A stretch of DNA of 64,000 nucleotides from Escherichia phage Ec_MI-02. Positions 39,964 through 40,419 of this stretch are shown here, piece after piece (within the stretch, counting starts at the first letter, position 1; every line of letters begins with the position of its first letter). The notes under the pieces are model-generated. The model was not told the DNA's origin. It did not search any database and saw only the letters and a program-made list of their open reading frames with translations. The position numbers and the translations under genes are program-made. The stretch is taken from the sequence record OP856590.1; one strand, written 5' to 3'.

Positions 39964-40419
39964 TTATTTTAAATCGTCTGCCCAATCGAGTTTAAGAGGC
40001 TCTTTATATTCACGATCTAATACGACCGGAATTTGTACATCACCGCTAAATGATAAGGGTCCAACATTATAAGACAATGTTATATGCGGTGTGTAATCAT
40101 CAAAATCATGTGTAGCACCTAGTGCCCGCGCATACATGTGTCGGCAGCGCAGATATTCAGAATCTAGCACAAGTACAAGAGTCGATCCATCTTGTGTTTT
40201 CCATACTTCTAAATGTCCAGAAGAAGCTACTTCAAAACTTCCGCTTGATGGAACATACGGAACATTTACTCTTGAATAACATATGGTCGAATGAATTTTT
40301 TCTCTAGGAACTGGATTAGGAACACGTAAAGAGCGCTGGAGTTCTTCCAGCGCATCAAGTGTTAATTCTGAAAACTTAGCTGCTACATAAAGACCCGTTG
40401 AAAAGTCTTTAAATTCCAT
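39964..40419 (-). CDS. 57B: Anti-CBASS protein Acb1 (gp57B), 2H phosphoesterase
   Basis: 151 aa; two H-x-T motifs (KIHSTICYS and TPHITLSY) typical of 2H phosphoesterases; position upstream of 57A as in T4. Confidence 0.8.

Follow-up and report, generated by a model that had tools for sequence, protein, structure and literature searches.

The DNA analysed here, hereafter the window, is a 64,000-nucleotide stretch of Escherichia phage Ec_MI-02 (OP856590.1). A 10-kb segment of it around gene 57B is 96–98% identical to T4-like coliphages, and the window belongs to the genus Tequatrovirus. The gene order on the minus strand is that of T4, namely 4, 2, 3, 1, 57A, 57B, an internal-protein gene, homologues of trna.4, trna.3 and trna.2, and a tRNA cluster (Table 1). 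An open reading frame running from ATG to TAA fills exactly the interval of 57B, on the minus strand; the original prediction had named no strand. It is almost certainly acb1, encoding a 2H phosphoesterase-type enzyme that degrades CBASS signals. This reading rests on the identity to T4 57B, the Pfam and PDB matches, the intact catalytic tetrad and ligand residues, and the T4 gene order, and no feature of the sequence speaks against it.

Table 1 Features of the window around acb1 and in the adjoining tRNA region
Feature	Position	Strand	Evidence
acb1 (gene 57B) CDS, 151 aa plus TAA stop	39964..40419	minus	ORF list, T4 identity, Pfam, PDB
First catalytic HxT, H43-S44-T45 (T4 H44/T46)	40285..40293	minus	translation; role from PMC9117128
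Second catalytic HxT, H112-I113-T114 (T4 H113/T115)	40078..40086	minus	translation; role from PMC9117128
Gene 57A, tail-fibre assembly chaperone, 80 aa	40419..40661	minus	Pfam PF17594 GP57, E 5e-51
Gene 1, dNMP kinase, 241 aa	40661..41386	minus	Pfam PF21448, E 4e-106; T4 order
Gene 3, tail protein, mechanical ORF of 203 aa	41436..42047	minus	
ip5, internal head protein, 85 aa	39634..39891	minus	PHROG 3499 'internal head protein', E 1e-49
Early-type promoter, TTTACA-17-TACTAT with extended -10 TG	39922..39950	minus	sigma-70 motif scan; aligned with T4
Candidate MotA-box-type middle promoter (TAATGCTTCA, 12 nt, TATAAT)	41410..41438	minus	pattern scan
Candidate late promoter, TATAAATA consensus	41017..41024	minus	pattern scan
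Cassette flanking ip5	39885..39966	minus	
Cassette flanking ip5	39560..39640	minus	
tRNA cluster, nine genes	37322..38608	minus	
161-aa ORF within the tRNA cluster	37663..38148	minus	PHROG 16521

The genes around acb1

Gene 57A lies immediately 5' of acb1, and its TAA stop codon overlaps the acb1 ATG. The original prediction had put 57B upstream of 57A, which holds in plus-strand coordinates only; on the coding strand 57A precedes and 57B lies downstream. It had also described a flanking gene of the internal-protein type, and this description was borne out by the 85-aa neighbour, which falls into PHROG 3499 and whose product matches Ip5 from both RB15 and RB32 at 100% identity. The ip5 gene occupies the position held by ipI in T4, so that the 1-57A-57B-internal protein gene arrangement is shared and the downstream gene differs. 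An assignment of this gene as T4 ipI itself was ruled out, since the likeness to IPI is confined to the N-terminal ~20 aa and the product is identical to Ip5. The N-terminal ~20 aa common to Ip5 and IPI are presumably a capsid-targeting sequence ending in an I-x-E protease site. Upstream of gene 1, the mechanical ORF of gene 3 begins at a TTG codon and is over-extended; the real gene likely has the T4 length of 176 aa from the ATG at 41969, and it matches the gp19-like tail tube family of Pfam (E 1.5e-12).

Aligned with T4 57B/Acb1 (NP_049750; T4 reference NC_000866), the acb1 product is identical at 151 of 151 residues without gaps, corresponding to T4 residues 2–152, and is thus shorter by one N-terminal residue. 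At the DNA level nine codons differ from T4; all nine differences are synonymous and none is non-synonymous, the signature of purifying selection on acb1. The Pfam scan returned PF23474 'Anti-CBASS protein Acb1' at 202.7 bits (curated cutoff, 27 bits; E 2.6e-60), with the profile matched over its full length (1-144/144). The single match in a PDB sequence search was the Acb1 chain of entries 7T26 and 7T27 (E 4e-62), in which 96 of the 141 aligned residues are identical (68%) and residues 1-142 of the 144-residue chain are covered. These entries represent the apo and the 3'3'-cGAMP-bound states, respectively, of Acb1 from Erwinia phage FBB1 (PMC9117128). The FBB1 orthologue comes from a phage of a different host genus and differs by a one-residue indel after 'QDGS', while the HxT/HxT tetrad and the C-terminal lid tryptophan are conserved. 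Its likeness to the product studied here points to a 2H phosphoesterase fold that is compact and has a C-terminal lid.

In T4 Acb1, catalysis is assigned to the tetrad H44/T46/H113/T115, nucleobase stacking to Y12, W74, F107 and W147, and adenine reading to E141 (PMC9117128). Residue numbers in the product studied here are those of T4 minus 1, and Y, W, F, E and W are all present at the positions equivalent to the five ligand-contact residues. The original prediction, which had proposed Acb1/gp57B with both HxT motifs intact from a 151-aa product containing HSTI and HITL, agrees with the translation (HSTI 43-46, HITL 112-115). It had asked for an alignment to T4 Acb1, and there the tetrad is unsubstituted and the likeness extends far beyond the motifs, in a protein identical to the T4 enzyme, whose biochemistry has been characterised. 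The features by which a member of the Acb1 family is recognised are found together: a full-length profile match, the HxT/HxT tetrad, five ligand-contact residues and a T4-type context. Plus-strand ORFs of 61 and 47 aa overlap acb1, and the Acb1 gene is carried by the minus-strand frame; a chance ORF or a wrong strand was ruled out by the full-length Acb1 matches and the T4 identity of that frame.

Candidate promoters and expression timing

Starting 14 nt past the stop codon of acb1, the early-type promoter faces ip5, and the equivalent site before the internal-protein gene is annotated as a promoter in phage Lutter. Since it is located 3' of the acb1 stop and directed away, it cannot drive acb1; it would serve ip5 and is uninformative on the timing of acb1. 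Two other candidate sites lie further upstream. A MotA-type site stands ~25 nt before gene 1, and T4 and Lutter carry the same box and -10 hexamer. The late-type consensus TATAAATA is found inside gene 1, upstream of 57A and 57B, within a 19-mer that is also present in T4 and Lutter. All of these assignments are consensus matches and unmapped, and the sigma-70 scan of the region gave 13 sites, which is no excess over the chance expectation from shuffles (10.4 ± 4.0).

From the arrangement of genes and motifs, we infer a 1-57A-57B unit in which acb1 comes last. The unit would be transcribed from the MotA-dependent middle promoter that precedes gene 1, and the translation of acb1 would be coupled to that of 57A. 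The late-type site within gene 1 could possibly act as an additional promoter for 57B. In T4, the cGAMP-degrading activity of Acb1 appears from ~15 min of infection (PMC9117128), and in three datasets acb1 transcripts fall predominantly into the middle/late classes (PMC13478754). The candidate middle and late promoters would fit this published expression.

The original prediction had taken the early promoter flanking acb1 as a sign of early anti-defence expression. The motif is indeed present, and it is a good one of the early type adjoining the gene; early promoters lying further upstream may also give some read-through. However, the motif lies on the same strand beyond the 3' end of acb1 and would be transcribed into ip5, and both the onset of Acb1 activity in T4 and the middle/late class of its transcripts speak against early expression. 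We thus consider it unlikely that the adjacent promoter drives acb1 as an early gene, and the claim of early expression lacks support.

Action of Acb1 and the RNA-ligase label

The T4 57B protein was named Acb1 by Hobbs et al. 2022 (Nature 605:522; PMC9117128). It is a 2H phosphoesterase whose metal-independent reaction proceeds via a cyclic phosphate intermediate to a linear 3'-phosphate product, and the two HxT motifs and this chemistry are what it has in common with the 2H superfamily, including the LigT 2'-5' RNA ligase and CPDases (PMC9117128). Cyclic di- and trinucleotides are clamped between aromatics, a C-terminal lid closes over the ligand, and the enzyme rotates an adenosine to set up an attack of its 2'-OH on the 3'-5' bond over the HxT/HxT tetrad (PMC9117128). 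The substrates are 3'3'-cGAMP, cUA, cAAA and cAAG, while cGG, cA4 and 3'2'-cGAMP are left uncleaved (PMC9117128). Deletion of acb1 from T4 causes a plating loss of more than 300-fold on CBASS hosts with otherwise normal growth (PMC9117128), and transposon insertions in T4 acb1 are depleted on the CBASS host only (HIDEN-SEQ preprint). Panoptes defence is unaffected by acb1 deletion, and over-expression of acb1 can trigger Panoptes.

The published T4 mechanism applies to the protein in the window because the two are identical. We therefore take the enzymology and the phenotype from experiments on the T4 protein, while gene identity, residues and synteny were determined here. In an infected cell, Acb1 would bind the messengers made by CBASS CD-NTases, namely 3'3'-cGAMP, cUMP-AMP, cAAA and cAAG, which as substrates would need at least one AMP and 3'-5' linkages exclusively. 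Four aromatic residues would grip the bases, and E140 (in the numbering of this protein) would read the adenine N6. The tetrad H43/T45/H112/T114 would provide acid-base catalysis for the attack of the adenosine 2'-OH on the 3'-5' phosphodiester, which would lead via a 2',3'-cyclic phosphate intermediate to the linear 3'-phosphate product. The linear product would be unable to activate CBASS effectors, and abortive infection would thus be prevented.

Another reading of 57B is a 2'-5' RNA ligase or a generic LigT-type 2H enzyme that acts on RNA ends rather than a nuclease of immune signals. The label 'RNA ligase' is carried by T4 57B and its orthologues in RefSeq and by PHROG 755, and the HxT/HxT motif is found throughout the 2H superfamily. 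However, the name is a legacy label based on homology, and Acb1 was the sole Pfam family detected in the product at E ≤ 0.01, with no match to LigT or any other 2H family. Moreover, the substrate of Acb1 is a cyclic oligonucleotide immune signal and not an RNA end, and the identical protein degrades CBASS signals and is needed for T4 growth on CBASS hosts (PMC9117128; HIDEN-SEQ preprint). We therefore regard this reading as extremely unlikely; 'RNA ligase' as the function of 57B was rejected on the Pfam result together with the published biochemistry.

The acb1 gene in the window is thus already known, here in a phage closely related to T4, and its protein is identical to the laboratory-tested one. 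Phage records encoding a protein at least 99% identical number 498, and recognisable homologues occur in 1470. Most are labelled 'hypothetical protein' or 'RNA ligase', and a few are labelled 'anti-CBASS protein Acb1', so that many GenBank and RefSeq records still misname the founding anti-CBASS nuclease. The present gene matters only for correct annotation and advances no open question. For a therapeutic or environmental T4-like phage, an intact acb1 predicts plating on CBASS hosts that signal by AMP-containing, 3'-5'-linked cyclic di- or trinucleotides.

The 57A/57B junction, ip5 cassettes and tRNA cluster

The junction of 57A and 57B differs from that of T4. In T4 it reads GAATGATGG, with the 57A stop codon TGA and a 57B product starting M-M-E-F; in the window it reads GAATAATGG, with the stop codon TAA and a product starting M-E-F. 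A single-base difference turns the first 57B ATG of T4 into ATA (ATGATGG in T4, ATAATGG here). At 40419-40423 the sequence is consequently TAATG rather than the TGATGATG-type arrangement of T4, and Acb1 has 151 aa instead of the 152 aa annotated in T4. A TAATG overlap of stop and start codons is a classic arrangement for translational coupling. The same 456-nt CDS is annotated in other Tequatrovirus records, for example Lutter and 236Ecol005PP. Judging by this natural variant, the first Met of annotated T4 Acb1 may be dispensable. The crystal construct of FBB1 Acb1 starts at G8 (PMC9117128), so the extreme N-terminus is not required for the crystallised fold, and we see no reason for the missing Met to matter.

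One could read the lost first ATG, the tighter TAATG coupling and the exchange of ipI for ip5 as marks of an anti-defence island that is differently regulated or combined in this phage lineage, the dosage of Acb1 being set so as to escape decoy-nucleotide sensors such as Panoptes. The data contain no positive sign of this, and we hold it to be very improbable. That acb1 is instead crippled by the change of the T4-annotated start codon from ATG to ATA has next to no probability: one base does differ there, but the second in-frame ATG is kept and overlaps the 57A stop, every other difference from T4 is synonymous, the shorter CDS is the one annotated in other Tequatrovirus records, and the FBB1 fold crystallised without the extreme N-terminus.

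Downstream of the intact acb1, ip5 is flanked by two near-identical cassettes, each consisting of TAATTTCACAAAGTTGTTTACAT, a variable stretch and then GTGATACTATTA. Each contains an early-type promoter and an inverted repeat that spans the -10 element. The arms of the inverted repeat differ between the cassettes yet stay complementary (GATGAG/CTCATC in one, TAGGGT/ACCCTA in the other). We take these cassettes to resemble the 'promoter-early stem-loop' cassettes proposed for the modular shuffling of T4-type internal-protein genes, and it looks as if such cassettes would explain the presence of ip5 in place of ipI.

The nine genes of the tRNA cluster are those for Arg, Asn, Tyr, Met/Ile(CAT), Ser, Pro, Gly, Leu and Gln. 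The T4 set comprises Arg, Ile, Thr, Ser, Pro, Gly, Leu and Gln; compared with it, the cluster in the window has Asn and Tyr and is without Thr. Between its tRNA-Ser and the tRNA with the CAT anticodon lies the 161-aa ORF, for which Pfam gives no family (best E 0.068) and whose PHROG is of unknown function. A 483-nt CDS labelled 'hypothetical protein' is found at the equivalent position in Lutter. In phage 236Ecol005PP the same two tRNA genes enclose a tRNA-Thr and no ORF, and in T4 the homing endonuclease gene segB lies elsewhere in the tRNA cluster. The position of the 161-aa ORF suggests that it is a mobile or homing-endonuclease-like gene.
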